A DNA stretch of 64,000 nucleotides from Reyranella sp. (lineage in GTDB: Bacteria > Pseudomonadota > Alphaproteobacteria > Reyranellales > Reyranellaceae). The notes below the pieces were generated by a model. That model was not told the DNA's origin and ran no database searches. It saw only the letters and a program-made list of their open reading frames with translations. Within the stretch, counting starts at the first letter, position 1. Each line of letters starts with the position of its first letter. Below are positions 24,363 to 45,860 of the stretch, one piece after another. The stretch spans positions 8,645 through 72,644 of the forward strand of contig JAQSDW010000202.1 in NCBI GenBank assembly GCA_029946105.1, read 5' to 3'. A program made the translations under genes and the position numbers.

Positions 24363-24380
24363 GCGATTTCCCTCGAAGGC

Positions 24381-26367: not shown

Positions 26368-26386
26368 GCCGCTCCACCTGCCGGGA

Positions 26387-27184
26387 CTACTCTTTGCCCC
26401 AGCGGTAGCCGAAGGACTGGTAGTTTTCGATTTCGGCGAAGTCCGGATCGATCGCACGGAATTTGTTTCGAATTCGTTTGATGCAGGAGCGGACGTTCGT
26501 TCGATAGCCATTTTCGCCGCTCCCAGCGATGAATCCAACATAGTGCATGCAGTCGTAGACGGCGCGGTACGTCACGTACTTTCCGACGCTGGACGCCAGA
26601 AGGTGGACGATCTTGAATTCGGTGATGGTGAGATTGATGTCCGAATCGTCCCAGAAAGCGCGGCTGACGCCCGGCTTCAGCATCAGGCGGCCGCGATGGA
26701 AGTTGCCCGCGAATTCCGGCTCGCTGGGCTTCTTGGCCGACCCGGCAATCAGACGCAGCCGCTGCACCAGGATCGGAACGCCGCGGGTCTTGTCGACGAA
26801 GTCCACCGCGCCGCGGTCGAAGGCGAGCTTCTCGTAGACCGGCTGCGAACGCCCGGTGAGGAAGACGACGGGCAGGGATACGCCGTTCCGGCGAAGCTTC
26901 GGCAACAGGTCTATCCCCGACATGCCGGGCAGGTTCCAGTCGAGCAGGATGATGTCGGCTTCGGCGCCGGCCGCGAGGGCTCCGAGAAGTGCCGGCCCGT
27001 CGCAGAAGCTTTCGACGGCGAAGCCGTGGTCGCCCAGTTCGCCCGTTACAGCTTCGCGATAGTCATCGTCGTCCTCGACGAAGGCGAGGCGAACGCGCCG
27101 CTCCCCGACGTTGCTTTCGTCGGGTCTGAAGCCGGGTTTGGAGCTGGGCCAGGCAGAGACGTTGTCCTTCATCGGTGTTGTCAT
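26387..27184 (-). CDS. OmpR-family response regulator (ChvI-like)
   Basis: REC (FVEDD, LLDWNLPGMSG, FLTG, DFVDK) plus winged helix (LT.TEF.I..LLA, NVRS.IKRIR.KF); true start may be slightly downstream. Confidence 0.88.
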   Translation of the reverse strand: MTTPMKDNVSAWPSSKPGFRPDESNVGERRVRLAFVEDDDDYREAVTGELGDHGFAVESFCDGPALLGALAAGAEADIILLDWNLPGMSGIDLLPKLRRNGVSLPVVFLTGRSQPVYEKLAFDRGAVDFVDKTRGVPILVQRLRLIAGSAKKPSEPEFAGNFHRGRLMLKPGVSRAFWDDSDINLTITEFKIVHLLASSVGKYVTYRAVYDCMHYVGFIAGSGENGYRTNVRSCIKRIRNKFRAIDPDFAEIENYQSFGYRWGKE

Positions 27185-27641
27185 CGCTCTTCACCTTGTA
27201 CGCTAGAGTGCCAAACTGCTTCGTCTGGACGTCCGGATAGAGCTGGACATCCAGCGTGCATCTTCCATCACGCCAAGACCAACGTTTTCCCGGGGGATGG
27301 TTCTCCTCCTGCGCAGGCGCGCCCAGCATCGCCCGAAGCTGGCCCTCGCTGGCGCCGACCAGTTCGATGGCGGGCGTGTCCCTTGGCGCGGTGCTGGCCT
27401 GCGAGGCGGCACCGCCGCCTGTGACCGAAGGTTCGGAGGGCGTGGACGACGACACCGGCTTGCCTCCCCCTTTGGGGCTCGCTTGAACCGGCGTTTGGGA
27501 CACCTTGCGCGCCTGCGCCGGTGCGGGTTGGGGCGATGTCAGCCGGGCGAAATCGTCACGCGCACTGCGAGCAACTTCGCATCCCGACAAGAGCAGCAGT
27601 CCCAGCCCCACGGTCTGCTTCATCAGGTCCCTGATCTTCAT
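27063..27641 (-). CDS. Hypothetical lipoprotein; 3' end overlaps the response regulator
   Basis: Lipobox LLLSGC, P/S/A-rich linker, LGAP...WSWRDGRCTLDVQLYPD. Confidence 0.7.
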   Translation of the reverse strand: MKIRDLMKQTVGLGLLLLSGCEVARSARDDFARLTSPQPAPAQARKVSQTPVQASPKGGGKPVSSSTPSEPSVTGGGAASQASTAPRDTPAIELVGASEGQLRAMLGAPAQEENHPPGKRWSWRDGRCTLDVQLYPDVQTKQFGTLAYKVKSDDNTDEGQRLCLAQLQTRLQTRRKQRRGAARSPRLRRGRR

Positions 27642-27808
27642 TCCGTTTCCGCAAGTGCGTTCCGAAAACGCTAGAGCCACTATGTGGCGGCTTTCGGGCC
27701 ACAGACTGACCACGAAAACGTCACAGCAAGGGTGCGGTTCCGCGCATTCTCACGTCTTGTTGCGTCTGCACGGCCGCCGCGCAAGCGGGACCGTCCGGCC
27801 CTCGGCGT

Positions 27809-27826: not shown

Positions 27827-27971
27827 GTTGCGCGCCGTCTCGGTGCTGTGATCGCCGGCATTCAAGTGGGCACTGGCGCATCCCATGAACAGACGCGAGC
27901 AAAGTCCCTTGCTCGGCTCACTTTCAAAGGGTGCAGACGTCATATGGATCGAATGCTATATCCGCCTCCAC

Positions 27972-28048
27972 GTCCCCGTAGCTCAGCCGGATAGAGCAGC
28001 GGTTTCCTAAACCGGAGGTCGGAGGTTCGAATCCTCTCGGGGACGCCA
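27972..28048 (+). tRNA. tRNA-Arg, anticodon CCT
   Basis: Cloverleaf: acceptor GTCCCCG/CGGGGAC, D-arm GCTC/GAGC, loop TTCCTAA, T-loop TTCGAAT, encoded CCA; 77 nt. Confidence 0.95.
28032..28048 (+). repeat. attL core (tRNA 3' end), TCCTCTCGGGGACGCCA
   Basis: Exact 17-bp match at 43101-43117. Confidence 0.9.
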
Positions 28049-28440
28049 CTCCTGGGCAAAGGAGAGAACTTCCGGCAAAGACTTTGACGGGCCGGTTTGT
28101 GTGAGTTTGCCCAGGATGACGGGCGGGCCTTCCAGGTGCACGGTGTGGTGGTCCACGGTCACGGAATCGAGGATCAACCGCATGTAGCTGACGCAGCGCA
28201 GGCGGCCCTTCGGCCAAGCACATCTGCATTGCCATCGAGAGCGCCCTCCGTTTGTCTGGGGGTGATCGTGGCCTGCCCTGTCTGGACGCTGAGCTGTAGA
28301 CGCTCAATATCCCGGTCTAACTCGGCCTTCTGCATCCGCAGCGCCACCAGGCGGTCACAAAGGGTCGGGTTGTCCGGCTGTATGGCTCCAGACTGAACCA
28401 GTGCCGGAAGCCGCCCAAGGGCTGCCTCCAAACCGCCACG
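28049..28440 (-). pseudogene. Frameshifted C-terminal remnant of a large serine recombinase
   Basis: Pieces in three frames: LGRL.ALVQSG...LCDRLVALRMQKAELDRDIERL / LAEGPPALRQ / YMRLILDSVTV...VLSFAQEWRP running into the tRNA complement. Confidence 0.7.
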
Positions 28441-28762
28441 AGCGTCACGGGCCTGCCAGAGCTTCGCTCGCGCCCCAAGCGCCGATCCGGTGCGGGCTTT
28501 GAGGACAGTGCTGGCAAAAGGCTAGAACAGTCATTGGCGAGGGCGAGCATTAATAGCAAAGAATTGCGCCATTGATTGCGCCACGTGTTGGTTGATACTG
28601 AAGAGCTGCGCGATGAGTTCGCCAAGAAACTCAGGTGAAAAGCGACTGCTCTTCAGGATAGCGACGCCTGCGGCACATCAACCAAATATTGGATGTTCCT
28701 TGGATCAATAGCCCTTTGCGTGCCTGCGGACACGACGAAGATTTGACGCCGTCTGCTGGGAT

Positions 28763-29971
28763 CTACCGTGGTGCAGGGATCGCCGTCGGCGGCTTCAAAC
28801 AAAGGATCGGCGCGAAGTGAAGCGCAAAGCCCAGGAATGCTGCGGACCAGGCAATGGCCGCAACGTACAGAAGCCCTTCGCTCCAGTCTGGCTCCAGCAC
28901 GGCGCAAATGCGAGCGAGCGCCGCGATTGCTGCCGATGCATAGACCGCCTGCAGGAGAGGCGAGGCGACAAGTGCTCGGCCAGCGTGGCCGAGGCTGGCT
29001 CGGCTCATGACAGCGAGCGTCATCAGGCCGATCGCGCCTGCTGCCCAGGCATGGATACCGGCACTAGGCGCCACGAGGCCGAAAGCGGACAGTCCGCCCA
29101 GCAAAAAGCCGAGCGGTACAAAGGCATAGCCAAGGTGCAGGACCAGCACGAGACGATCAGAGAAGGTGCGATAGCCTGCCCAACGACCGAGTCGCACGAA
29201 ATTGAGCGCGGCCGCCGCGGATAGTGCCACGCCTGTGAGAAGCCCTTCGGGTACGACGACCCAAAGCGCGAGGCCGGCACCACTCAGCGCCAGGCAGAAG
29301 AGATCGAAGTCGTCGAACGGCGTGGGCAGGCGACCGGATACGCGCCGCATCAGCCAGTTCCGCGTGAAGCTGGGAATGATACGGCCTCCGATCACCATGA
29401 TCAGCACCAAGACGGCGCCGATGCCTAACCGCGTCGAGTAGACAGCGAGACCTTCAAAATGTGCCTCGAGGTGGAAACCGAGGTTACCCGCGGCCAGCAA
29501 ACAGAGCAGTGCCACGATCTTGAGATTGCGCCAGTTCCGGCCGGCGACTATCTCACGAGCAACCGCGGCGGCCATGAGTACCAGGAAGGCGCAATCTACC
29601 AGGGCCGATCCGAGCCAGCCGATATTGGCGGACAGGGTGACGGCATAGCGGCCCGCGAGCCAGACCAGCACCAGGCCCGCCAACGGCAATCCCTGAAGTG
29701 GAAGGCGCCCGGTCCAGTTGGGGATAGCCGTCAGCAGGAAGCCCGCGACAATAGCCGGCACATAGCCGAACAGTAGCTCGTGGACATGCCAGTCGCGCGG
29801 CGCGAAGGCGGTAGCGACCGACAACTCGCCGTAGAACATCGGCAGCCACGCGAGAACCTCGATGCCGGCCCAGATCGAGCCCAGCAGAAAGAAGGGGCGG
29901 AAGCCGTAGGACAGCAGAATGGGACCGGCATAGGGTTTGAGACGGGGAATTGCGGCCATGGTCGGCATCAT
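28763..29971 (-). CDS. nnrS: NnrS family haem-copper membrane protein
   Basis: SYGFRPFFL, WHVHELLFGY, GFLLTA.PNWT, GGRIIPSFTRNW, SRASLGH.GR. Confidence 0.93.
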   Translation of the reverse strand: MMPTMAAIPRLKPYAGPILLSYGFRPFFLLGSIWAGIEVLAWLPMFYGELSVATAFAPRDWHVHELLFGYVPAIVAGFLLTAIPNWTGRLPLQGLPLAGLVLVWLAGRYAVTLSANIGWLGSALVDCAFLVLMAAAVAREIVAGRNWRNLKIVALLCLLAAGNLGFHLEAHFEGLAVYSTRLGIGAVLVLIMVIGGRIIPSFTRNWLMRRVSGRLPTPFDDFDLFCLALSGAGLALWVVVPEGLLTGVALSAAAALNFVRLGRWAGYRTFSDRLVLVLHLGYAFVPLGFLLGGLSAFGLVAPSAGIHAWAAGAIGLMTLAVMSRASLGHAGRALVASPLLQAVYASAAIAALARICAVLEPDWSEGLLYVAAIAWSAAFLGFALHFAPILCLKPPTAIPAPR

Positions 29972-29994
29972 TGCTGCGCAGACGATAGCCGGTC

Positions 29995-30008
29995 TTGATT
30001 TGGCACAA
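29995..30008. promoter_or_regulatory. FNR/NnrR-type box upstream of nnrS
   Basis: TTGAT-TTGG-CACAA versus consensus TTGAT-N4-ATCAA. Confidence 0.6.
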
Positions 30009-30024
30009 ACTGTCCTCGACTGCC

Positions 30025-30714
30025 CTAGGTGGCGCGCAAGGCGCGGGCACCTGCGAATTCACGCAGACGTGTCGGATCTACGATTGTCACCTGGCGGCTT
30101 CCACCACTAACGCCGAGAGGACGTAGCGCGGCGAAGGCGCGAGACAGGCTTTGGGGCGTGATGCCGAGCCGACCTGCAACAAGGCGCCGACCGCCGGGGA
30201 GGGTTACGCTGATGGGGCCGGTCTCGCGCGGCGCTAAAGCGAGGAGGAAGGCCGAAAGCCTCTCGATTGCCGAGAGCAGCTTCAGATCCTTGATCTGTCC
30301 AATTAGAGTACGCCAGTAGCCGGACAGCAGCAGCACCGCTCCGTATGCCAATGACCCCGTGGCCCGCACCTGGGCGCGGAACGCCGCGGCCGGCCACATC
30401 AAAATGCGCCCCTCGTCGAGCAATCGCGCGGTCAGCAAGTAGGGCGCATCCAGTACCACTGCCGGCACGATGAATGCGTCGCCAGGTCCAAAAAACTCCA
30501 CCAACGTCTCTTCTTGGCCGGCCGAACCGAACAATCCGACGCGACCAGACAGAACAATATGGAGGAACTCCGCTTTTTCACCCTGTCGGCAGAGGATTGC
30601 GCCCTCAGGCAATGTTTGGACGAAGCAAGCCGTCAGCATAGCCGCAAGGTCGGGCTCGCCAACTTGGGCGAACAATCGTGAGCGACGGATCAGCGGCATG
30701 TCGGTTGTGCGCAT
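30025..30714 (-). CDS. Crp/Fnr family regulator (NarR/NnrR/FtrB-like, no Fe-S cysteine cluster)
   Basis: cNMP-like domain (QGEKAEFLHIVLSG.V.L), HTH (VAGRLGITPQSLSRAF); divergent from narK. Confidence 0.88.
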   Translation of the reverse strand: MRTTDMPLIRRSRLFAQVGEPDLAAMLTACFVQTLPEGAILCRQGEKAEFLHIVLSGRVGLFGSAGQEETLVEFFGPGDAFIVPAVVLDAPYLLTARLLDEGRILMWPAAAFRAQVRATGSLAYGAVLLLSGYWRTLIGQIKDLKLLSAIERLSAFLLALAPRETGPISVTLPGGRRLVAGRLGITPQSLSRAFAALRPLGVSGGSRQVTIVDPTRLREFAGARALRAT

Positions 30715-30770
30715 AACTAGCTTTACCTTCTCGCTTCAAACATCGATGCGCCATTCAAAGGCAAAGCTCG

Positions 30771-30784
30771 TTGATATGGCGCAA
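30771..30784. promoter_or_regulatory. FNR-type box upstream of the Crp/Fnr gene
   Basis: TTGAT-ATGG-CGCAA. Confidence 0.55.
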
Positions 30785-30874
30785 TCGCGGATCCGCGAAA
30801 TCTTACCAAATGGTAACGGATACCATTCGCAAAAGAGAACAAACAGCCGAAGATTCTTGGTGCCGGCGTCGGGC

Positions 30875-30888
30875 TTGATTCACGTCAA
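30875..30888. promoter_or_regulatory. FNR box upstream of narK-narG
   Basis: TTGAT-TCAC-GTCAA, one mismatch to consensus, 67 bp before the narK ATG. Confidence 0.75.
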
Positions 30889-30955
30889 GTAATCCGATGC
30901 GGGCTGCTCCGATGTTCCATCTGTGCCAGCGAGCGGCACAACGAGGGAGCGTCCG

Positions 30956-33703
30956 ATGCAGCGACCGACGATTGTCCAAGAGAGGACTCCAGAAGGACGG
31001 AGCATAGCGCTCGGCATGAGCACCCTCGCATTCACGGTCTGCTTTGCCGTGTGGACGATCTTTTCCATCATCGGCATCCAGATCAAGAAGGACCTCGGAC
31101 TCACCGACACGCAGTTCGGTCTGCTGGTGGGAACGCCGATCCTGACCGGCTCACTGATCCGCCTCATTCTCGGCATATGGGCCGACCAGTACGGCGGCCG
31201 CGTCGTCTACGTCGGCGTGATGATCGCCGCGGCAGTGGCGACCTGGCTGCTCACTTTCGCCTACGACTATCCGACGTTCCTCCTGGCCGCGCTCGGCGTC
31301 GGCATCGCCGGCGGCTCGTTCGCGGTCGGCATCTCCTATGTTTCCCGCTGGTACGGGCCGGGCAAGCAGGGCACGGCGCTTGGCATCTTCGGCGCCGGCA
31401 ACGTCGGGGCCGCAGTGACCAAGTTCGTGGCGCCCTTCGTCATGGTGGCCTACGGCTGGAAAGCTGTTGCCGATGTGTGGGCTTTGGCGCTGGTCGCCAT
31501 CGCGGTGCTGTTCTGGTTCACCACCAAGGACGACCCCGAGCTCGCGGCGCGGCGCAAGTCGGGCGCCAAGCCCGAACCGATGTCGGCCATGCTCGAGCCG
31601 CTGCGCAACATCCAGGTGTGGCGCTTCGCCCTCTACTATTTCTTCGTCTTCGGCGGTTTCGTGGCGCTGGCACTGTGGCTGCCGCGTTATCTGATCGGCG
31701 TCTACGGTCTGGACATCACGACAGCGGGCATGATCGGTGCCGCCTACTCGGTGCCGGCCAGCCTGTTTCGCATCTACGGCGGCATCCTGTCGGACAAGGT
31801 CGGTGCCCGGCGTGTGATGTATTGGACGTTCGGCGTCTCGGTCGCAGCCTGCTTCGTGATGTCCTATCCGCCGACGCAGTATGTCGTGAAGGGCATCACC
31901 GGACCGATCGCCTTCACGCTGGAGATGGGACTGGTTCCCTTCACCGTCGTGGCCTTCGTGCTCGGCTTCTTCATGAGCTTGGGCAAGGCCGCGGTCTACA
32001 AGCACATCCCGGTCTACTACCCCAAGCATGTCGGCGCCGTGGGCGGCGTCGTCGGCCTGGTCGGTGGGTTGGGCGGCTTCGTGCTGCCGATTGCCTTCGG
32101 CGCCCTGAACGACCTGACCGGTATCTGGACGAGCTGCTTCATGCTCATGTTCCTCGTCGCCGCCATCTCGCTGGTGTGGATGCATGTGTCGATCCGCACC
32201 ATGGAGCGCAACGTGGCCGGAGAGGCGTTGGCCAGGCTACCCGAACTGCCCGAAATGCAGGAAATCCACGGGCCGGAGCATGTCGGCAAGCTCTCCGGCA
32301 AGGTCCTCGAGGATTGGCGCCCGGAAGACAAGACGTTCTGGGAGCAGACGGGCCGCAAGATCGCCGCGCGCAATCTCGCGATCTCCATTCCGGCCCTGCT
32401 GCTCTCGTTCGCCGTCTGGATGGTGTGGTCGGTCGTGGTCGCCAAGCTGCCCTCGATCGGCTTCCGCTATACGACCGACCAGCTCTTCTGGCTGGCATCG
32501 TTGCCGGGCGTTACCGGTGCCACGCTGCGGATCTTCTACTCCTTCACCGTGCCCATCTTCGGCGGACGGTTGTGGACGACGCTGGCGACCTGGTCGCTGA
32601 TGATCCCGGCGGTTGGCATCGGCTACGCGGTGCAGAACCCCGCGACGCCCTACTGGATCTTCCTGTTCCTGGCGCTGCTGTGCGGCTTCGGCGGCGGCAA
32701 CTTCGCCTCGTCGATGTCCAACATCTCCTTCTTCTTCCCCAAGGCGGAGAAGGGCAATGCCCTGGCGCTGAACGCCGGCCTCGGGAATCTCGGTGTTAGT
32801 GTCGTGCAGTTCGTCGTGCCGATGGTCATCACCGCCGGGGTGTTCGGCTGGCTGGGGGGCGATCCGCAGGTCGTGAAGGATGCCGGCGGCGGCAAGATGT
32901 GGCTGCAGAATGCGGGCTTCATCTGGGTGCCGTTCATCGCGATCTCGGCTTTCGCCGCCTGGTTCGGCATGAACGACATCGCCTCGGCCAAGGCCTCGTT
33001 CGCCGAGCAGTCAGTGATCTTCCAGCGCCGGCACAATTGGATCATGTGCTGGCTCTACACCGGCACCTTCGGGTCCTTCATCGGCTACTCGGCGGGCTTC
33101 CCGCTACTCGCCAAGACGCAGTTTCCCGAGATCAATGCGCTCCAGTACGCGTTCCTGGGGCCGTTGCTCGGTGCCTTGTCGCGTTCCCTCACCGGCTGGA
33201 TTGCCGATCGCTGGGGCGGCGGCCGCGTCACCTTCTGGGTGTTCGTCGTCATGGCTTTGGGCGCCCTGGGTGTCGTGCACTTCCTGGAAGAGAAGAACTT
33301 CGCCGGCTTCTTCGCGATGTTCCTGCTGCTGTTCCTGGCCAGCGGTGTGGGCAACGCTTCGACCTTCCAGATGATCCCCGCGATCATGCGCAAGGACATG
33401 GACCGGCTGATGCCCGGGGCATCGGCGGACACGAGGCGCATGCAGTCCGACAAGGAGTCGGCGGCGATCATCGGCTTCACGTCGGCCATCGCGGCCTATG
33501 GCGCGTTCTTCATTCCCAAGAGTTTCGGCTCCTCGATCGCCATGACTGGTGGCGCATCGCTCGCGCTCTACGGGTTCCTCGCTTTCTACCTGAGCTGCAT
33601 CGCCATCACCTGGTTCTTCTACACCCGCAGGGGTGGCCTGCTGTTCGACATCGAACGCGGCCGTGCGTCTGTCTCCGCACCATCAATCAGTCCTGCTCGC
33701 TGA
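30956..33703 (+). CDS. narK: Fused double-MFS nitrate/nitrite transporter (NarK1-NarK2 type)
   Basis: 915 aa, two MFS units with nitrate signatures (GIAGGSFAVG; CGFGGGNFASSMSNISFFFP). Confidence 0.92.
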   Translation: MQRPTIVQERTPEGRSIALGMSTLAFTVCFAVWTIFSIIGIQIKKDLGLTDTQFGLLVGTPILTGSLIRLILGIWADQYGGRVVYVGVMIAAAVATWLLTFAYDYPTFLLAALGVGIAGGSFAVGISYVSRWYGPGKQGTALGIFGAGNVGAAVTKFVAPFVMVAYGWKAVADVWALALVAIAVLFWFTTKDDPELAARRKSGAKPEPMSAMLEPLRNIQVWRFALYYFFVFGGFVALALWLPRYLIGVYGLDITTAGMIGAAYSVPASLFRIYGGILSDKVGARRVMYWTFGVSVAACFVMSYPPTQYVVKGITGPIAFTLEMGLVPFTVVAFVLGFFMSLGKAAVYKHIPVYYPKHVGAVGGVVGLVGGLGGFVLPIAFGALNDLTGIWTSCFMLMFLVAAISLVWMHVSIRTMERNVAGEALARLPELPEMQEIHGPEHVGKLSGKVLEDWRPEDKTFWEQTGRKIAARNLAISIPALLLSFAVWMVWSVVVAKLPSIGFRYTTDQLFWLASLPGVTGATLRIFYSFTVPIFGGRLWTTLATWSLMIPAVGIGYAVQNPATPYWIFLFLALLCGFGGGNFASSMSNISFFFPKAEKGNALALNAGLGNLGVSVVQFVVPMVITAGVFGWLGGDPQVVKDAGGGKMWLQNAGFIWVPFIAISAFAAWFGMNDIASAKASFAEQSVIFQRRHNWIMCWLYTGTFGSFIGYSAGFPLLAKTQFPEINALQYAFLGPLLGALSRSLTGWIADRWGGGRVTFWVFVVMALGALGVVHFLEEKNFAGFFAMFLLLFLASGVGNASTFQMIPAIMRKDMDRLMPGASADTRRMQSDKESAAIIGFTSAIAAYGAFFIPKSFGSSIAMTGGASLALYGFLAFYLSCIAITWFFYTRRGGLLFDIERGRASVSAPSISPAR

Positions 33704-33714
33704 AGGATACCATC

Positions 33715-36700
33715 ATGTCGCATTTCCTCGATCGGTTGACGTTCTTCAAGAAGGTCAGGGAGCCGTTCGCCGACGGCCACGGCATCACCACTGAGGAGAG
33801 CCGCGGTTGGGAGGACGCCTACCGGAAGCGCTGGCAGCACGACAAGATCGTGCGCTCGACGCACGGTGCCAACTGTACGGGCTCGTGCTCGTGGAAGATC
33901 TACGTCAAGGGCGGGATCGTCACCTGGGAGACCCAGCAGACCGACTATCCGCGGACGCGTCCCGAGCTGCCGAACCATGAGCCGCGCGGCTGCTCGCGCG
34001 GCGCGAGCTACAGCTGGTACCTTTATTCCGGCAATCGCGTGAAGTATCCGCTTGCCCGCTCGCGCCTGCTGCGGCTGTGGCGCGAGGCGCGCACCACCCT
34101 GACGCCGGTCGCCGCCTGGGCGTCGATCGTCGAGAACCCGGAGAAGCGCAAGGCCTACACCAGCAAGCGCGGGCACGGCGGCTTCGTCCGTGTCGGTTGG
34201 GACGAGGCGACCGAGATCGTGGCGGCGGCCAACGCATATACCGCAAAGACGCATGGGCCTGACCGGATCTTCGGCTTCTCGCCGATTCCCGCCATGTCGA
34301 TGGTCTCCTACGCCGCGGGCTCGCGCTATCTGTCGCTGATCGGCGGCGTCTGCATGTCGTTCTACGACTGGTATTGCGACCTGCCGCCGGCCTCGCCGCA
34401 GACCTGGGGTGAGCAGACCGACGTTCCTGAGTCGGCCGACTGGTATAACGCCGGCTTCGTGATCCTGTGGGGCTCGAATGTGCCGCAAACGCGCACGCCC
34501 GACGCCCACTTTTACACCGAGGCCCGCTATCGCGGCATGAAGAGCGCCGTGATCTGCCCCGACTATTCGGAGGCGTCGAAGTTCGGCGACATCTGGCTGT
34601 CGGTGAAGCAGGGCACCGACTCGGCGCTGGCCATGGCGATGGGCCACGTCATCCTGAAGGAATATCACGTCGATCGGCAGGCCAAGTACTTCCGTGATTA
34701 TGTGCGCCAGTACACCGACATGCCGATGCTGGTGAGGCTCGCCAAGCGCGACGGCATGTACGTGCCGGACCGCTTCGTCCGCGCGTCGGACTTCGACGCG
34801 TCGCTGGGCGAATCGAACAATCCCGAGTGGAAGACCGTTGCCTTCGACGAAATCTCGGGCGACGTCGTGGCGCCGCGCGGCTCGATCGGCTTCCGCTGGG
34901 GCGAGAGCGGCAAGTGGAATCTCGAGAACAAGGAGTCCTCGGGCAAGGACGTCGCGCTGCGGCTCTCTCTCGCCGATGTCCGGGACGAGGTGGTCGAGGT
35001 CGGCTTCCCCTATTTCGGCAACATCAAGCACGAGCATTTCGTCTCGACCGATCATGACGGCGTGCTCAAGCGGCGCGTGCCGGTGAAGTCGCTGAAACTC
35101 GTCGACGGCGAGACCTTCGTCGCCTCGGTCCATGACCTGTTCGTCGCCAACTATGGCGTCGATGCCGGGTTGGGCGGGCCCAATGTGGCCAAGTCGCTCG
35201 ACGATGACGTCCCCTATACGCCGGCGTGGGCCGAGAAGATCACCGGCGTCTCCAGGGACAAGATCATCCAGGTGGCGCGCGAGTTCGCGACCAACGCCGA
35301 GAAGACCAACGGCCGGTCGATGATCATCATCGGCGCGGCGATGAACCATTGGTACCACGCCGACATGAACTATCGCGGCGTGATCAACATGCTGGCGATG
35401 TGCGGCTGCGTCGGCCAGTCCGGCGGCGGCTGGGCGCACTACGTGGGCCAGGAGAAGCTCCGGCCGCAGTCGGGTTGGTTGCCGCTCGCCTTTGCCCTCG
35501 ATTGGGGCCGTCCGCCGCGGCAGCAGAACTCGACGTCGTCGTTCTACGCGCACAGCGACCAATGGCGCTACGAAACGATCAACGTCGGCGACATCGTCTC
35601 GCCGACCGCGCCTCCGGGAAAATGGGACGGCGCGATCATCGACTACAACATCCGGGCCGAGCGCATGGGCTGGTTGCCGTCCGCGCCGCAGCTCGAGACC
35701 AACCCGCTGCAGGTGGCGCGCGATGCCGCCGGCGCCGGCATGGAGGCCAAGGACTACGTCGTGCAGAAGCTCAAGAGCGGTGAGCTTAAGCTCTCCTGCG
35801 AGGATCCCGACGATCCGAAGAACTGGCCGCGCAACATGTTCGTGTGGCGCTCCAATCTTCTCGGCTCCTCGGGTAAAGGGCACGAATATCTTCTGAAGCA
35901 CCTGCTCGGCACGACGCATGGCGTCATGGGCAAGGACCTCGGGCAGGAGGGCAAGGCGAAACCGGCGGAGGCCGTGTGGCACGAGGAGGCACCGCAGGGA
36001 AAGCTCGACCTGCTGGTGACGCTCGACTTCCGCATGTCCACGACCTGTGTCTACTCCGACATCGTCCTTCCGACCGCCACTTGGTACGAGAAGAACGATC
36101 TCAACACCTCCGACATGCACCCTTTCATCCATCCGCTGACGGCCGCGGTGGATCCTGTCTGGGAATCGCGCAGCGATTGGGAGATCTACAAGTCGATCGC
36201 CAAGGCGTTTTCGCGCGTCGCACCCGAAGTCCTGGGCGTCGAGAAGGATGTCGTGCTGACGCCGATCATGCACGACAGCCCGGGCGAGATGGCGCAGCCA
36301 TTCGACGTCAAGGACTGGAAGCGTGGCGAGGTCGAACCGATCCCCGGCAAGACCATGCCGGCCATTACTGTCGTCGAACGCGACTATCCCAACGTCTACA
36401 AGCGTTTCACGTCGCTCGGACCGTTGATGGAGAGGATCGGCAACGGCGTCAAAGGCATCGCCTGGCCCACAGGGCATGAGGTCGAGCTTCTGAAGAAGCT
36501 GAACGGCGTCGTCACGGCCGAGGGGCCGACCAAGGGGCTAGCGAGGATCGAGAGCGACATCGATGCCGCCGAAACCCTGTTGATGCTGGCGCCCGAGACC
36601 AACGGCGAGGTCGCCGTGCGGTCGTGGGCGGCGCTGTCCAAGATGACCGGCCTCGACCACACCCATCTCGCGCTGCCCAAGGAAGACGAGAAGATCCGCT

Positions 36701-37461
36701 TCCGCGATGTCGTGGCGCAACCGCGCAAGATCATCTCCGCGCCGACCTGGTCGGGGCTGGAGAGCGACAAGGTCTGCTACAACGCGGGCTACACCAATGT
36801 CCACGAACTGATCCCGTGGCGCACCCTGACCGGGCGCCAGCAGCTCTACCAGGATCACCTCTGGATGCTGGCGTTCGGCGAGGGCCTGTGTGTCTACCGT
36901 CCGCCGCTCGATCTTCGCGCCATCAAGCCGGTGATCGACAGCCGGCCAAACGGCGAGAAGCAGATCGTGCTGAACTTCATCACGCCGCATCAGAAGTGGG
37001 GCATTCACTCCACCTACACCGACAACCTGATGATGCTGACCCTGTCGCGCGGCGGTCCCATTGTCTGGCTGAGCGAGGTCGACGCAGCAAAAGTAGGCAT
37101 CGTCGATAACGACTGGGTCGAGGCCTACAACGTGAACGGCGCGCTGGTCGCACGCGCCGTCGTCTCCCAGCGCATGAAAGAGGGCACGCTCTTCATGTAT
37201 CACGCGCAGGAGAAGATCGTGAACGTGCCCGGGTCGGAAATGACCGGCAACCGCGGTGGCATCCACAACTCGGTCACGCGCGTGGTGATGAAGCCCACGC
37301 ACATGATCGGCGGCTATGCCCAGCTTGCCTACGGTTTCAACTACTACGGCACTATCGGCACCAACCGCGACGAGTTCGTGGTGCTGCGCAAGCTCGCCAA
37401 GGTCGACTGGCTCGAACGCCCGCACAAGGACGCTGTTCCCGTCCTGCGCGCCGCCGAGTGA
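33715..37461 (+). CDS. narG: Respiratory nitrate reductase alpha subunit
   Basis: MSHFLDRL, HGANCTGSCSW, PRGCSRGASYSWY, FYDWYCDLPP, TPHQKWGIHSTY; start ATG 33715. Confidence 0.97.
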   Translation: MSHFLDRLTFFKKVREPFADGHGITTEESRGWEDAYRKRWQHDKIVRSTHGANCTGSCSWKIYVKGGIVTWETQQTDYPRTRPELPNHEPRGCSRGASYSWYLYSGNRVKYPLARSRLLRLWREARTTLTPVAAWASIVENPEKRKAYTSKRGHGGFVRVGWDEATEIVAAANAYTAKTHGPDRIFGFSPIPAMSMVSYAAGSRYLSLIGGVCMSFYDWYCDLPPASPQTWGEQTDVPESADWYNAGFVILWGSNVPQTRTPDAHFYTEARYRGMKSAVICPDYSEASKFGDIWLSVKQGTDSALAMAMGHVILKEYHVDRQAKYFRDYVRQYTDMPMLVRLAKRDGMYVPDRFVRASDFDASLGESNNPEWKTVAFDEISGDVVAPRGSIGFRWGESGKWNLENKESSGKDVALRLSLADVRDEVVEVGFPYFGNIKHEHFVSTDHDGVLKRRVPVKSLKLVDGETFVASVHDLFVANYGVDAGLGGPNVAKSLDDDVPYTPAWAEKITGVSRDKIIQVAREFATNAEKTNGRSMIIIGAAMNHWYHADMNYRGVINMLAMCGCVGQSGGGWAHYVGQEKLRPQSGWLPLAFALDWGRPPRQQNSTSSFYAHSDQWRYETINVGDIVSPTAPPGKWDGAIIDYNIRAERMGWLPSAPQLETNPLQVARDAAGAGMEAKDYVVQKLKSGELKLSCEDPDDPKNWPRNMFVWRSNLLGSSGKGHEYLLKHLLGTTHGVMGKDLGQEGKAKPAEAVWHEEAPQGKLDLLVTLDFRMSTTCVYSDIVLPTATWYEKNDLNTSDMHPFIHPLTAAVDPVWESRSDWEIYKSIAKAFSRVAPEVLGVEKDVVLTPIMHDSPGEMAQPFDVKDWKRGEVEPIPGKTMPAITVVERDYPNVYKRFTSLGPLMERIGNGVKGIAWPTGHEVELLKKLNGVVTAEGPTKGLARIESDIDAAETLLMLAPETNGEVAVRSWAALSKMTGLDHTHLALPKEDEKIRFRDVVAQPRKIISAPTWSGLESDKVCYNAGYTNVHELIPWRTLTGRQQLYQDHLWMLAFGEGLCVYRPPLDLRAIKPVIDSRPNGEKQIVLNFITPHQKWGIHSTYTDNLMMLTLSRGGPIVWLSEVDAAKVGIVDNDWVEAYNVNGALVARAVVSQRMKEGTLFMYHAQEKIVNVPGSEMTGNRGGIHNSVTRVVMKPTHMIGGYAQLAYGFNYYGTIGTNRDEFVVLRKLAKVDWLERPHKDAVPVLRAAE

Positions 37462-37475
37462 AGGGGAGAAGTATC

Positions 37476-38995
<1,520 letters not shown>

Positions 38996-38999
<4 letters not shown>

Positions 39000-39766
39000 T
39001 GAAGACTCTCAGGGCCTTGGCCGCACTGCTTTCCTACCCGACCGCCGACCTCATCGCGGCGGCCGGCGAAATCCGCCAGGTCATCGACGGTGACTCGGTC
39101 CTGCCGGCCGCCGAACGCGGCCAACTGCACCGGCTGATCGACGACTTCGCCGGCGGTGATCTCTACGACCTGCAGGAGCGCTACGGTCTGCTGTTCGACC
39201 GCACGCGGTCGCTGTCGCTGCATCTCTTCGAGCATGTCCATGGCGAGAGCCGTGACCGCGGTCAGGCCATGGTCGATCTGCTCAAGCTTTATGAGGAAAG
39301 CGGCTATACGCCGACGGCGACCGAACTGCCGGATTTCCTGCCGCTGTTCCTGGAGTATGCGTCGACGCGCCCGCCTCAGGCGGCGATCGAGCTGATCGGC
39401 CAGCCGGCCAACGTGATCGCGGCCCTGAAGGAGCGTCTGGTCAAGCGGAGTTCGCTCTACGCCGCCGTGATGTCGGCGCTGCTGGCCCTCTCGAAAGCCA
39501 AGCTCGACGAGAAGGCCCTCGCGGTGCTGCGCGCCGAGCCCGATCCCGAACCCGACGATCTCGAGGCGCTGGATGCGGCCTGGGAAGAGGAGGAAGTGAC
39601 CTTCGGCCCCGGTTCGGCCGACGCCAAGGGCGCCTGTGGCGTCGAGGGGCTTTCCACCCGACTGCGCGCCGCCATGCGGCCGGCCGACGGCGTTGCGCCG
39701 CCGCTCGCGCACGGACGATCAGCCGGGCACCGCCCCATGCCGTCCAACCCGGGAGCCTCGTCATGA
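38996..39766 (+). CDS. narJ: Nitrate reductase molybdenum cofactor assembly chaperone
   Basis: LLFDRTRSLSLHLFEHVHGESRDRGQAMVDL, ELPDFLPLFLE. Confidence 0.95.
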
Positions 39767-40476
39767 AGGACTATGTCTTCCATCTCCTGTTCGTCTGGTA
39801 TCCCTACATCTGCCTGGCGATCTTCCTGCTCGGCAGCCTGGTCCGCTTCGATCGCGAGCAATACACCTGGCGCGCCAGCTCCAGCCAGCTCCTGCGCAAG
39901 CGCCAGCTTCGCTGGGGTTCCAACCTGTTTCATGTCGGCATCCTGTTCCTGCTGCTGGGCCACACCGTCGGTCTGCTGACGCCGACCTGGCTCTACACGC
40001 TCGTCATCACCGTCGAGCAGAAGCAGCTGATCGCGGTTGCTGCCGGCGGCATCGCGGGCGTCATCTGCTTCGTCGGCCTCACGATGTTGCTGCACCGCCG
40101 ACTGTTCGATGTCCGCATCCGCGCCAACAGCTCGGTGATGGACATCGCGATCCTGGCGATCCTCTGGCTTCAGCTCTGCCTCGGCCTCGCCACGCTGCCG
40201 TTCTCCTTCGCCCATTCGGATGGGTCGGTGATGCTGATTCTGTCGCATTGGGCGCAGGGCATCGTGATCCTGCATCCGGTCGATCCGAAGACTCTGCAAG
40301 GCCTCGCCTGGCCTTACCTCACGCACCTCGTACTGGGCATGACCTTGTTCGTGGTCTTCCCGTTCAGCCGCCTGGTGCACATCTGGTCGGCGCCGGTCTG
40401 GTACCTGGGTCGTCGCGGCTACCAGGTCGTGCGCCGCCGCCGGCCGTTGCCGGCCTCTCGTCAGCCGGCGGAGTGA
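39763..40476 (+). CDS. narI: Respiratory nitrate reductase gamma subunit (cytochrome b)
   Basis: YTWRASSSQ, NLFHVGIL, GH.VGLLTP, FPFSRLVHIWS. Confidence 0.95.
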   Translation: MKDYVFHLLFVWYPYICLAIFLLGSLVRFDREQYTWRASSSQLLRKRQLRWGSNLFHVGILFLLLGHTVGLLTPTWLYTLVITVEQKQLIAVAAGGIAGVICFVGLTMLLHRRLFDVRIRANSSVMDIAILAILWLQLCLGLATLPFSFAHSDGSVMLILSHWAQGIVILHPVDPKTLQGLAWPYLTHLVLGMTLFVVFPFSRLVHIWSAPVWYLGRRGYQVVRRRRPLPASRQPAE

Positions 40477-40481
40477 ACGCC

Positions 40482-41333
40482 ATGAGCACCCCTCAGCCTG
40501 CCACCGCGCCGCGCCCGGCCCGCCGTCGCTTTACCCGGCCCGAACCGGTCAGCGTCAACGGCGTGGTCATCCCGAGTGCGGAAATCTCGCGCGAGACCCA
40601 GCATCACCAGGCCACCGATCCCGACCAGGCCTGGATGCTGGCGGCACGGGCGCTGGCGATCCGCGAACTGCTGTCGCAGGAAGTCGAGCGACTGGCGATC
40701 GAGGCGGAGCCGCTCGACGACGGCGAGGGACGCCGCGAGACACCTCAGGAAGCGCGATTGCGTGCCCTGATCGAGCGCGAAGTCGCGGTGCCCAGCGCCG
40801 ACGAAGACGCGTGCCGTCGCTACTACGACGCCAATATCCGCCGCTTCCGCTCGCCCGACCTGTTCGAAGCCGCCCACATCCTGTTCGTGGCAGCACCAGA
40901 CGACATGGAGGCCCGCGACAGGGCCCGCGCGGAGGCAACGGCGCTGATCGTCGAACTGACGCAGGACCCGGCGGGCTTCGCGGCCGCGGCCGCCGCCCAC
41001 TCGACCTGCACCTCTGCCCGGCAGGGCGGCAATCTCGGCCAGGTCAGCACCGGCCAGACCGTTCCCGAGTTCGAGACGGCCTTGCGCGCTATGGTTCCGG
41101 GTTCCGTGCATCCCGAGCCCGTTGAAACCCGCTATGGCCTGCACGTCGTGCGGCTCGACCGCCGTGTCGACGGCGAGCGACTGCCGTTCGATCTCGTCCG
41201 GGATCGCATTGCCGACTACCTCGACGAAGCGGTCCGCCGTCGCGCCCAGCAACAGTACGTGTCGATCCTGGCCGGCCGCGCCCAGGTGACCGGTATCGAC
41301 CTTGCCGCCGCGCGCGGTCCGCTCGTCCAGTAG
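40482..41333 (+). CDS. PpiC-type peptidylprolyl isomerase associated with nar operons
   Basis: AAHILF, HSTCTSARQGGNLGQ, TVPEFE, VETRYGLHVV. Confidence 0.88.
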   Translation: MSTPQPATAPRPARRRFTRPEPVSVNGVVIPSAEISRETQHHQATDPDQAWMLAARALAIRELLSQEVERLAIEAEPLDDGEGRRETPQEARLRALIEREVAVPSADEDACRRYYDANIRRFRSPDLFEAAHILFVAAPDDMEARDRARAEATALIVELTQDPAGFAAAAAAHSTCTSARQGGNLGQVSTGQTVPEFETALRAMVPGSVHPEPVETRYGLHVVRLDRRVDGERLPFDLVRDRIADYLDEAVRRRAQQQYVSILAGRAQVTGIDLAAARGPLVQ

Positions 41334-41339
41334 GAGGCG

Positions 41340-41672
41340 GTGATGGTGCTGGGTCAGGTTCTCGAACGTCTGGGCGACGAGGCATTTGCCGCCGAGACGT
41401 TGGTCGCACTCGAAGATCTCAATCTGATGGTCGAGGTCGAGAAGGCCGGCCGGCCGTTTGGAGAAGGTATCGGGGAATACGCCGCCGGAGCCTCGCGTCG
41501 CTTCGCGCAACTCGCCTCGGATGAAGATTGGCTCGCCCTCATGACGGCGCTCGAGCGTGCCGACGATGCCGGCACGGCCTGCCTGAAACACATGCTCGAA
41601 TGGTCGCTGCGCCACGATGCCGAAGGCACGGACGAGGGTTGCGGCGGCCAATGCACCTGCAAGGGGAGTTGA
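41340..41672 (+). CDS. Small hypothetical protein of the nar operon
   Basis: RBS GGAGG, tight coupling to neighbours, Cys-rich tail GCGGQCTC. Confidence 0.7.
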   Translation: MMVLGQVLERLGDEAFAAETLVALEDLNLMVEVEKAGRPFGEGIGEYAAGASRRFAQLASDEDWLALMTALERADDAGTACLKHMLEWSLRHDAEGTDEGCGGQCTCKGS

Positions 41673-41675
41673 ACC

Positions 41676-42248
41676 ATGTCCGATATTCTCATCGCTGCAC
41701 TGGTCTATGCCGACGGCATCTATCCCGATCGCGCGATTGCCCGGGCCATCGAGCCGTTGCGCGAGCGTGGCGTTGCCCTGGCGGGCGCGCTGCAGCTCGA
41801 GTCGACCGATCTGCCGGGTCGGCATCCCTGTGACATGATCCTGCAGGATCTCTCGAGCGGCGAAGTCACGGCCATTGCCGAGCATCGCGGCAGCGAGGCC
41901 CGCGGCTGCCGGCTCGACGTCAGTCTCCTGACCGACTTGGCCGAGGCCGTCGCCTTCAGCCTCTACAGCGAGGAGCCGCGGCTCCTGGTGGTCAACAAGT
42001 TCGGCAAGATCGAAGCTGACGGCGGCGGCCTGCGCGGCGCGATCGCCGAAGCCGTCGACCTCGGCATTCCGGTCCTGGTCGGCGTTCCGGCACGCAATCT
42101 CGATCGCTGGCGTGCTTTCGCCGGCCCGCTCGCGGTCGAACTGCCGGCCGAACCGGCGGCGATCGCTGCGTGGCTCGAGGCGCGGGGCCTGCCGGCGACG
42201 TCTGGTGCGCGAGATGCCGCAAGCGCGGACGTATCGCGCCGCGCCTAG
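41676..42248 (+). CDS. DUF2478-like protein (P-loop related)
   Basis: GCRLD, LVVNKFGKIEA.GGGLR, GIPVLVGV. Confidence 0.8.
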   Translation: MSDILIAALVYADGIYPDRAIARAIEPLRERGVALAGALQLESTDLPGRHPCDMILQDLSSGEVTAIAEHRGSEARGCRLDVSLLTDLAEAVAFSLYSEEPRLLVVNKFGKIEADGGGLRGAIAEAVDLGIPVLVGVPARNLDRWRAFAGPLAVELPAEPAAIAAWLEARGLPATSGARDAASADVSRRA

Positions 42249-42268
42249 GCGTAGCGGGACGGCATGAG

Positions 42269-42742
42269 ATGGACGATCTCACCATGGCGCGGGCGATACA
42301 TGTCCTGGCGGTGATCCACTGGATCGGCGGCGTGGCCTTCGTCTCGGCGGTGATCCTGCCGGCTATCGCGGCCTTCGAGGTGCCGTCGCGCCGCGTGGCG
42401 CTTTTCGAGGCGATCGAACATCGCTTTTCCACCCAGGTGAAGATCTCGGTGCCCGTCGCGGGCCTCAGCGGCGCCTACATGGCGTGGCGCCTGGACGCCT
42501 GGAACCGGTTCATCGAGCCAGCAGGCTGGTGGCTGGCGGCCATGGCGCTCGTCTGGCTGCTGTTCATGACGATCCTTTTCATTGTCGAGCCGCTGCTGCT
42601 GCGCGGCTGGTTCCAACGCCGCGCGGCGGCCGATCCGGTGGGCACTCTTCGGCACCTTCAACGGGCCCACGTGCTTCTGTTGCTGGTGGGCACGACGGTC
42701 GCGGCGGCCGGCGTGCTCGGCGCCCACGGTCTACTGAGCTGA
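42269..42742 (+). CDS. Membrane protein (CopD/DUF2269-like)
   Basis: ARAIHVLAVIHWIGGVAF, several TM helices, terminal GAHG. Confidence 0.7.
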   Translation: MDDLTMARAIHVLAVIHWIGGVAFVSAVILPAIAAFEVPSRRVALFEAIEHRFSTQVKISVPVAGLSGAYMAWRLDAWNRFIEPAGWWLAAMALVWLLFMTILFIVEPLLLRGWFQRRAAADPVGTLRHLQRAHVLLLLVGTTVAAAGVLGAHGLLS

Positions 42743-42761
42743 GGCCGCAAAGGAGCGTGAA

Positions 42762-43085
42762 ATGTCCCCGGTTGTTTGTCCGGCATTGCGGCTCGCGGCC
42801 ACAGCTGCGCTCGTCATAGGTGCGGCAGCCTGTACATCGGCACCTCCCGCGTCACCGCAGTTGATGGCGCGCTGCGTGCAGCTCCAAATGCTTTGGGTGC
42901 GCTACGAGCCAGTCTTGACCCTCATTCACACTGGCCAGAAGGCGCAAGTCGAGCTGGCGATGATGGATTGCCAGAACGGCCGGTACGAGGAGGGCATTCA
43001 GGCGCTGGAGAGGATTCTGCGGCGCGGCCGGATGACGGTTCCACGAGCCCAGACTGAGGGAGTCATGGGCTCCCGAGGGGGTTAA
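42762..43085 (+). CDS. Small hypothetical lipoprotein
   Basis: Lipobox GAAAC; last gene before attR. Confidence 0.55.
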   Translation: MSPVVCPALRLAATAALVIGAAACTSAPPASPQLMARCVQLQMLWVRYEPVLTLIHTGQKAQVELAMMDCQNGRYEEGIQALERILRRGRMTVPRAQTEGVMGSRGG

Positions 43086-43100
43086 TGGGGACTTATGGGT

Positions 43101-43117
43101 TCCTCTCGGGGACGCCA
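43101..43117 (+). repeat. attR core (duplicate of the tRNA-Arg 3' end)
   Basis: TCCTCTCGGGGACGCCA identical to 28032-28048. Confidence 0.9.
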
Positions 43118-43123
43118 TTCCTG

Positions 43124-44413
43124 CTAGAGATCCGTCCTCAGCGACGAGCCCCCAAGGCCCTGGAAGTCGGCGATGTTGGCCCGGCGGCGATCCTCGGCTT
43201 CGGCGAAGCAATGCTCCACGCTGCGCGCCAGAAGTTCGAGTTCGCGTTCAAGGGCTGCCGCGCGCTGCTGCGGCAAACGATCGACCAGGTGTTCGAGCAT
43301 CGCCCGCAGCCGGCGCGCGACCTGGGTGCTGGAGGCGCCGTACTGGCGTACCTCCGTCACCGCGAGGGCCACGATGTCAGCCCAATCGGGAGTCGGAAAC
43401 ACCAGGCGAAGATTGCCGGCCAGATCGCGGACGTGGCCGCCGCCCAGGGCCTTGTTGCCGGCATAGCGCAACAGCCGATGAATCTGGTCGATCGCCACGA
43501 CCGCCGTCGTCGGATCGTTGACGGCCGGCGACAGCGCGCGGGAGGCTATATCCACCATGATGCGGAAGCCGAACATCGGATCCTGGCGCATCGTGCGTTC
43601 CGGACCGAAGACCACGAGCGCGTTTATCGCCGCTTCGTCGATGGCGGCATCCGGCGGGTAGATGCGCGCCAGCGCATCGTCGCTCGAGACGAAGTCGCCA
43701 ACCTGCGGGATCAGCTCGATGATGCAGCCCGTCTTCGTCGCCAGTGCCGCCAGGTCCCGGCTGCCGAAGGCGAGGAAGGTGCCCGACAGTCCGACGCGGT
43801 GCACGACGCGACTTTCCCTGCCGGCGAGTTCGTCGACTTCGTTCGCTTCCGGTCGGGTCGGATCGAAGGCGCCCACGTAGACGCTGTCCATCGCATCTTT
43901 CGCTTCGCTGAAGATGTGCTGCAGCACGGCGATGGGGCGGAGGCCGAGGCCGACCTCCTGGACGAACCAGAAGAAGATCGGGATGGAGGCAACGTTGCCG
44001 GCAACCGCCAGCACGATGATCAGGGCGTGGCGAGACTCGTCGTTCGTGTTGGCCAGGGCCACCAACGTGATGCCGAAGGCGAAAACGAAGGCGCTGGTGG
44101 CGAACTTCATCTGCCAGCGACCAAAGGTGAGGCGGATGAGGCGCGGCGTGGTCTGTCCGCTGGCGAGCTGCACGGCGAGCAACAGGGCCGAGACCGCATA
44201 GACGATGAAGGTGAGCATCGACGAGGAGAAGAGCCCCATCAGCGCCCGCAGGCCATCGATGTCGCTCAGGTCGTAACGCGGCCAGTCGGGGTCGGGCACG
44301 TACCAAAGGATCAGCTTGCCGAAGAACCACGCCAGCAGGATGGCAAAGGAGGGATAGAACCAGAACGAGGAGCGCAGGAACTCCCACAGGCGGTATCGTA
44401 GGTGCCAGCTCAT
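43124..44413 (-). CDS. DUF2254 family membrane protein
   Basis: LAVQLASGQ.TPR, FGPERTMRQDPMFG.R.MVDIA.RALSPAVNDPTTA; start ATG 44413. Confidence 0.85.
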   Translation of the reverse strand: MSWHLRYRLWEFLRSSFWFYPSFAILLAWFFGKLILWYVPDPDWPRYDLSDIDGLRALMGLFSSSMLTFIVYAVSALLLAVQLASGQTTPRLIRLTFGRWQMKFATSAFVFAFGITLVALANTNDESRHALIIVLAVAGNVASIPIFFWFVQEVGLGLRPIAVLQHIFSEAKDAMDSVYVGAFDPTRPEANEVDELAGRESRVVHRVGLSGTFLAFGSRDLAALATKTGCIIELIPQVGDFVSSDDALARIYPPDAAIDEAAINALVVFGPERTMRQDPMFGFRIMVDIASRALSPAVNDPTTAVVAIDQIHRLLRYAGNKALGGGHVRDLAGNLRLVFPTPDWADIVALAVTEVRQYGASSTQVARRLRAMLEHLVDRLPQQRAAALERELELLARSVEHCFAEAEDRRRANIADFQGLGGSSLRTDL

Positions 44414-44478
44414 CACTCTCCCTCGTCCCCGCCACTCTTGCGGGGCACCCTTCGCTAGCAAGCACGGGAGCCGCCACG

Positions 44479-44492
44479 TTGACAAGAATCAA
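44479..44492. promoter_or_regulatory. FNR/FixK-type box between the divergent DUF2254 and ppk2 genes
   Basis: TTGAC-AAGA-ATCAA, one mismatch. Confidence 0.65.
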
Positions 44493-44573
44493 GCACTGCC
44501 GCTCGAAAAAATGGATATTCTCCCCAAAGGCGTCTGCGGCGGCGCGGCAGCGCGATGGAAACAGGAGGCCGAA

Positions 44574-45368: not shown

Positions 45369-45397
45369 AACCGATCAGGGACGAACGGAGAAGCGAC

Positions 45398-45835: not shown

Positions 45836-45860
45836 ACTGGCCCGGTGGGCCTTCCAGGCC

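Follow-up and report, generated by a model that had tools for sequence, protein, structure and literature searches.

Possible remains of two stacked islands around a nitrate-respiration module at tRNA-Arg(CCT) in Reyranella

How a complete nitrate-respiration module came to lie between a tRNA gene and a second copy of the 3′ end of that gene is the question raised by a 64,000-nucleotide stretch of DNA from Reyranella sp. (hereafter the window). In it, an intact tRNA-Arg(CCT), the sole tRNA of the window, is followed by the relic of a recombinase gene, by a 12-gene block composed of nnrS, a Crp/Fnr-family regulator, narK-narGHJI, a peptidyl-prolyl isomerase (PPIase) gene and four accessory genes, and by a displaced copy of the tRNA end. 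A first-pass annotation had read this arrangement as one island, in which a single element carrying both the recombinase and the nar genes made the duplication. We compared the locus with the remainder of the 5.62 Mb assembly (genome G000) and with a genus comparison set of 114 genomes (relatives are denoted by G-numbers), and assigned the genes of the window by Pfam and NCBIfam profile searches. The reading at which we arrive, and to which we give a probability of about one half, is that positions 28049-43123 are the remains of two successive islands at tRNA-Arg(CCT), of which the nar module is the surviving content.

The repeat, TCCTCTCGGGGACGCCA, consists of the last 17 bases of tRNA-Arg(CCT) and occurs in direct orientation at 28032-28048 and at 43101-43117, where the first-pass annotation had located the duplicate; these are the only two copies in the whole assembly. 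The match can be extended to 23 bases with one mismatch (CTCCTG beside the proximal copy and TTCCTG beside the distal one), and no 23-base match of this kind arose when the window was shuffled 100 times. The repeat begins where the T-loop meets the T-stem, which is the usual crossover place of integrases that target tRNA genes. The locus therefore presents the anatomy of a tRNA island: it is bounded on one side by the complete tRNA gene and on the other by a displaced, directly oriented 3′ fragment of that gene. Chance resemblance with no island behind it has the shortness of the repeat in its favour and nothing else, and is scarcely credible given the two copies in 5.6 Mb, the empty shuffles, the exact T-loop boundary and the 30 bases held in common with relative G062 (see below). 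A reading of the distal copy as the deletion remnant of a second full tRNA was also rejected, as its boundary falls exactly at the T-loop and the adjoining nine bases match an element arm. The sequence of tRNA-Arg(CCT) is 100% identical throughout the genus, partial copies of 17-55 bases are present in several relatives, and this tRNA is an integration hot spot in the genus.

The distal copy has a counterpart in G062, in which tRNA-Arg(CCT) is followed by a gene for a 451-residue protein of the Phage_integrase family and the distal 17-mer is situated on another contig. Positions 43092-43121 of the window are identical to the distal junction of G062 over 30 bases, comprising the element arm CTTATGGGT, the 17-mer and TTCC, and a 26-mer of this junction is found in only 3 of the 114 genomes. 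In the left attachment site (attL) of G062, the core is flanked by CTTATG on the left and CATAAG on the right, an inverted repeat such as might be expected for core binding sites. The 23-mer at the distal site corresponds to the tRNA end and trailer of G019 and G009 and thus has the appearance of the original end of the tRNA, which integration displaced. The distal junction of the window probably belongs to the tyrosine-integrase island family of G062, the only indication of the integrase type being the shared junction; by Pfam, no tyrosine integrase is present between the repeats. In G053, the distance from the tRNA to a downstream distal copy, which has one mismatch, is 7.7 kb, and this copy is followed by the tail remnant of a large serine recombinase (LSR), indicating that islands stack in tandem at this tRNA. 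The same stacking, with a 48-base repeat, is found in G003.

On the proximal side, the tRNA is overlapped by the relic of an LSR gene, which aligns in three reading frames to residues 427-582 of the intact 582-residue LSR of G130, with 79-87% amino acid identity and a DNA identity of 83.8% over 27968-28464. The last 14 codons of the relic are antisense to the tRNA. The first 426 codons have been deleted, and with them all three of the Resolvase catalytic domain, the Recombinase domain and the zinc ribbon that are present in the intact homologues of G130 and G024. No Pfam family was matched on the pieces between the tRNA and nnrS, and tblastn of the relic against plasmids gave no match. In a search of 1.8 billion proteins, the 115-residue open frame of the relic found 41 relatives, the longer of which bear Resolvase, Recombinase and zinc-ribbon domains (HMMER). 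Because the catalytic part is deleted and no other copy of this recombinase family exists in the G000 genome, no working recombinase is left, in agreement with the earlier proposal that the recombinase has decayed and the module is now immobile. The recombinase relic first annotated here is thus real, but it is the tail of an LSR rather than of a tyrosine integrase and, as the following comparison demonstrates, did not make the 17-base duplication.

Whole-genome searches revealed intact LSRs, 542-582 residues in length, directly at tRNA-Arg(CCT) in G130, G105 and G089, and a second LSR family (∼42% amino acid identity to the LSR of G130) at the same tRNA in G024 and G006. The intact frames enter the tRNA gene antisense, overlap it by 42 bases and stop in the anticodon loop. 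A second copy of the 17-mer is absent from all five of these genomes, and the relic is thus not the enzyme behind the duplication. LSR tails also persist in G008, G088, G111, G023 and G009. SCCmec is an LSR-driven island with repeats of 15-20 bases. Repeats of this length likewise accompany the LSR-driven ssrA islands of Dehalococcoides (PMC3146451), and a single island would account for an LSR tail at attL and a 17-mer at the opposite end of the window. The five intact islands without a second 17-mer speak against it, as does the element arm at the distal copy, which matches the tyrosine-integrase island of G062; moreover, a single island needs two deletions flush with the nar block, whereas two islands need one. 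We consider the single island improbable. On balance, we favour the view that two LSR families use tRNA-Arg(CCT) as a chromosomal attachment site and leave no tRNA-derived repeat, the nar locus being a decayed member stacked on a tyrosine-integrase island. Serine recombinases were stated in 2015, in the paper describing an island database, not to be known to target tRNA genes (PMC4383910).

For the two successive islands at 28049-43123, we propose that crossover of a tyrosine-integrase island in the T-loop left the right junction at 43092-43123, and that an LSR island was later inserted at the very end of the tRNA, of whose recombinase only the last 156 codons would survive. A deletion, of which 28477-28762 would be the scar, could then have removed everything between the LSR tail and nnrS. 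The sole surviving cargo would be the 12-gene nitrate-respiration module, now immobile in G000. That nar arrived as island cargo, which island carried it and in what order the events took place are matters that we infer.

Two further readings of the recombinase end were considered and given up. The sequence 3′ of the tRNA was suspected to be old chromosomal flank, as it also follows the tRNA in G008 and G023, which have no nar genes; this was rejected because the sequence is the coding 3′ end of an LSR gene, in which the peptide PEVLSF is kept via synonymous changes and of which intact genes exist in relatives. The distal 17-mer was also considered as the right attachment site (attR) of the LSR, since read antisense the LSR frame would end six codons past the core; this was dropped because the intact LSR islands lack a second 17-mer.

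Additional features of the hot spot were noted in the relatives. The cargo of the LSR island in G130 includes insertion sequence elements and an OmpA-family gene, and that of G024 includes AAA/SMC-like and DUF2726 genes. In G088 (L239:10819-11340), a tail relic of the G130-type serine recombinase adjoins tRNA-Glu(TTC), the 3′ end of which is similar to that of tRNA-Arg(CCT); the G130-type family may use more than one tRNA. Contig C3 of G010 (L087:15790-15910) holds an orphan piece made up of 24 bases of the tRNA end and 18 bases of the LSR tail, with a degenerate tRNA-like 5′ end in front of it and a distant serine recombinase homologue ∼1.2 kb away. Copies of the 5′ 39-51 bases of tRNA-Arg(CCT) are found at G004:C33:53695-53745 and G005:C15:202576-202614 and on G001:C49, G022:C514 and G016:C32. 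These 5′ copies hint at yet another type of integrase, one with a crossover close to the anticodon loop and with its islands on the 5′ side of the tRNA.

The gene content first described between the repeats is borne out by the profile searches (Table 1). NarG, NarH, NarJ and NarI are all present, intact and in operon order. The best NCBIfam match of the Crp/Fnr regulator is FtrB, at a score under the FtrB cut-off, and the protein has no N-terminal cysteine cluster of the kind found in oxygen-sensing FNR. The earlier statement that the island has no nir or nor genes, and would reduce nitrate only to nitrite, also holds: in the whole G000 genome (a 98% complete assembly), nirK is absent (best match 30 bits, cut-off 296) and nirS has no convincing match, making nitrite the expected end product. 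Judged by gene content, nitrate is probably reduced to nitrite only. The module includes nnrS, which is typical of nitric oxide-responsive regulons, though the genome lacks a copper nitrite reductase and contains no convincing match for a cd1 nitrite reductase.

The distribution and phylogeny of these genes establish the nar module as a compact, conserved cassette that is exchanged horizontally within the genus. NarG is present in 46 of the 114 genomes, in three classes that are 92-98% (about 20 genomes, the class of the window), 87-90% (about 18 genomes) and about 70% (6 genomes) identical to the NarG of the window. The first two classes form one clade of the NarG tree, nested among Hyphomicrobiales with Bosea nearest at 85%. 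The third (G003, G006, G064, G088, G093 and G100; L200, L201) groups with Burkholderiales sequences and looks like a second, independent acquisition. NarG of the sister family is 72-74% identical and is placed across the tree; by way of comparison, RpoB is 82-83% identical to that of the sister family and 63-76% identical to those of other families of the class. Within the genus, the narG tree pairs G000 with G019 at 100/100 support. The rpoB tree places G019 within a clade of genomes without nar (G013, G014, G015 and G020), and rpoB rejects the pairing of G000 with G019 (approximately unbiased test, p = 1e-33). The expectation of the first-pass annotation that NarG would not follow vertical inheritance is thus supported by the conflict between narG and rpoB.

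The 12 genes are collinear in G019, G018, G010, G011 and G017, including the four accessory genes (h1, the DUF2478 gene, the CopD-like gene and h2), with nnrS absent in some; the PPIase gene follows narI in most proteobacterial relatives. Each species examined has different flanks around the module, and nothing is common beyond nnrS and h2. In G019, the module adjoins genes for VirB9/CagX-like, VirB10/TrbI-like and LysR proteins (L062:136-4130, contig C94, 19.7 kb), and this contig probably belongs to a plasmid or a conjugative element. The G000 genome contains no homologues of these VirB9 and VirB10 genes, no search having been aimed at a relaxase, and no homologue of the TolC-like gene of G019, a candidate ancestral neighbour. 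An exact look-up of NarH returned no match. G010 was considered as a case of an intact conjugative element with nar and rejected, as the 47 kb from its tRNA fragment to nar consist of ordinary metabolic genes and giant repeat proteins. Giant repeat-rich open frames (>3700, 2571 and 1734 residues) are located downstream of the tRNA in G008 (L078:7412-18526) and G010 (L079:24-12133). Of the earlier claim that nitrate respiration was acquired as one cassette, the part that stands is the horizontal movement of a compact module; its acquisition at this site does not follow, as other nar loci lack these attachment sites.

Several observations weigh against the reading of two successive islands with nar as their cargo. 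The composition of the module is ordinary (GC content 0.647 against 0.657 ± 0.011; tetranucleotide distance at the 78th percentile), and the nar genes have diverged about as much as core genes, so that any acquisition must be old. In G062 (NarG 97% identical), the module is flanked by the gene for malate:quinone oxidoreductase (Mqo) and by the same tRNA, and lies 88 bases upstream of the latter; in G053 (NarG 96% identical) it lies 2.4 kb upstream of the same tRNA, and its neighbours on the left are a reverse transcriptase and a tyrosine integrase. Neither genome yielded tRNA fragments to the left of nar, and a module 5′ of the tRNA is unexplained by the island model. At seven other loci with close NarG (95-97%), neither a tRNA nor an attachment core is present within about 10 kb. 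The intact LSR islands of relatives bear other cargo and not nar, and no second example of nar inside either island type was found. At the far junction, the homologous sequence of G000 and G062 includes only ∼10 bases of element arm, and the species tree with which narG conflicts is that of a single gene, rpoB. Finally, none of the 22 DUF2254 orthologues in the 114 genomes has a tRNA within 1.5 kb, and no empty site was recovered.

This last result bears on the prediction of the first-pass annotation that relatives would show an empty tRNA-Arg site joined to the DUF2254 gene; no such site was seen, and by the terms of that annotation the prediction failed. The DUF2254 gene is of full length, its C-terminus matches those of orthologues, and 6 bases separate its stop codon from the repeat. 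Its closest orthologue (81%, in G055) is found, together with the neighbour gene, within DNA whose counterpart in G000 is uninterrupted and at another place. Given that the two genes are placed differently in G055, the right-flank DNA has itself moved, and the test is a weak one. The pair (43124-45844 of the window) is located in G055 on contig C34 (L257-L259), and the region surrounding it there is contiguous on contig C235 of G000.

The observations at the tRNA of relatives also form the basis of another explanation, in which nar is not island cargo but an old resident of the Mqo/tRNA-Arg neighbourhood that was enclosed, through rearrangement, deletion or homologous exchange in a plastic zone, between the leftover attachment sites of passing islands. 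The module is beside the same tRNA, on its other side, in G062 and G053, and in G010, provided that contig C23 comes after contig C31, which bears the tRNA, it lies among ordinary genes ∼47 kb downstream of a tRNA that is probably the same one. Mqo is a common left anchor: that of the window shares 87% amino acid identity with the Mqo beside the nar block of G062, and its synteny extends to G019 and G010. The DNA on either side of the tRNA varies from species to species, both ends of the nar block adjoin DNA without homologue, and ordinary composition and core-like divergence are what a resident would display. However, integration at a tRNA pushes resident downstream genes beyond attR, such that a resident module inside the repeats requires extra illegitimate events, and the module occupies the entire interval from attL to attR. 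The narG/rpoB conflict and the type IV secretion context in G019 further show that the module moves. We regard long residence as unlikely, though as the more serious of the alternatives to two successive islands. The link between module and tRNA, on either side, is real but unexplained, and the locus may be a plastic zone that gathers accessory DNA on both sides.

The 5′ side of the tRNA in the window is filled by a histidine kinase and response regulator pair and one further frame without assignment (24862-27713). These genes have no counterpart at this place in G019, G010 or G062, and the 5′ side is thus variable too.

Table 1. Features of the tRNA-Arg(CCT) locus in the window, followed by intact LSR loci in relatives.
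Feature	Position	Strand	Basis or remark
Malate:quinone oxidoreductase (Mqo), conserved left-flank anchor of the tRNA-Arg locus	22866-24380	-	Pfam; synteny
tRNA-Arg(CCT), intact	27972-28048	+	ARAGORN
LSR relic, last 156 codons, two frameshifts	28010-28476	-	tblastn against intact G130 LSR
Proximal repeat copy: 17-base tRNA end and CTCCTG	28032-28054	+	Repeat search
Junction DNA, probable deletion scar joining LSR tail to nar block	28477-28762	.	No similarity in any relative (alignments, BLAST)
nnrS (haem/copper membrane protein)	28763-29971	-	Pfam NnrS, E = 4.5e-107
Crp/Fnr-family regulator, FtrB-like	30025-30714	-	Pfam cNMP_binding and HTH_Crp_2
narK, fused two-domain nitrate/nitrite transporter	30923-33703	+	MFS_1 in three stretches; TIGR00886, 527 bits, two stretches
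narG, catalytic subunit of respiratory nitrate reductase	33730-37461 (start codon approximate)	+	TIGR01580 equivalog, 2179 bits (cut-off 1084)
narH	37458-38999	+	Fer4_11 and Nitr_red_bet_C
narJ, chaperone	38996-39766	+	Nitrate_red_del
narI	39763-40476	+	Nitrate_red_gam, E = 1.8e-75
PpiC/NifM-like PPIase	40500-41333 (start approximate)	+	Rotamase (Pfam); NifM-like (NCBIfam)
h1, accessory gene	41340-41672	+	No family match
DUF2478 gene	41676-42248	+	Pfam
CopD-like gene	42170-42742	+	Pfam
h2, accessory gene	42762-43085	+	No family match
attR: element arm, displaced 17-base tRNA end and ancestral trailer TTCCTG	43092-43123	+	Match to G062 distal junction
DUF2254 membrane protein, outside island	43124-44485	-	Pfam
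DUF2254 neighbour gene	44555-45835		No family match
Intact LSR, G130	L232:10543-12291		
Intact LSR, G105	L230		
Intact LSR, G089	L234		
Intact LSR, second family, G024	L235:1563-3248		
Intact LSR, second family, G006	L237		

The acquisition of genes on islands is of an ordinary kind here. What the locus would illustrate is how an entire module for anaerobic respiration can turn into a fixed trait of the chromosome, either carried by islands at a tRNA hot spot or caught within them, once those islands have lost their recombinases. The locus also offers a caution, in that a recombinase relic beside a tRNA repeat need not be the maker of that repeat. The LSR islands, a by-product of this analysis, may matter more than the nar island itself. 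If LSR landing at a tRNA end without a repeat is confirmed, the target range of these enzymes is wider and a class of islands has been overlooked, as islands without a tRNA-derived repeat would escape island finders that depend on such repeats.

Among known systems, the proteobacterial narK-narGHJI clusters are the closest in gene content. The order of Crp/Fnr regulator, narK, narGHJI and PPIase, often with h1 and the DUF2478 gene, recurs in Bosea, Afipia, Bradyrhizobium, Pseudolabrys, Brucella and many others; the module studied here differs in a genus-specific extension, with nnrS on one side and the CopD-like gene and h2 on the opposite side, and in lying between attachment sites. The nitrate respiration conjugative element of Thermus thermophilus makes nitrate respiration a transferable module. 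The module described here resembles it in being a transferable nitrate-respiration module, with VirB9 and VirB10 genes beside it in G019, and differs in that G000 has no homologues of those two genes and in that the element types are unrelated.

The symbiosis island of Mesorhizobium, an example of a tyrosine-integrase island in a tRNA gene, has a 17-base repeat of the end of its phe-tRNA target. The tRNA islands of tyrosine integrases catalogued by Islander (PMC4383910) share with the present locus an intact tRNA with a displaced direct 3′ fragment, crossover in the T-loop, metabolic cargo and stacking; here, in contrast, no such integrase is left, no empty site is known and the composition has fully ameliorated. 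The ssrA islands of Dehalococcoides (PMC3146451) likewise present a respiratory module, there of reductive dehalogenases, in tandem islands at a small-RNA gene, with a serine recombinase gene by attL on the reverse strand, and some of those islands are decayed and fixed. They differ in that their serine recombinase family is tied to a 20-base repeat and to a transfer-messenger RNA (tmRNA) gene as target, whereas the LSR islands described here have no repeat and target a tRNA gene. The nearest precedent for an LSR at a tRNA gene is provided by these islands at the tmRNA gene of Dehalococcoides (PMC3146451).

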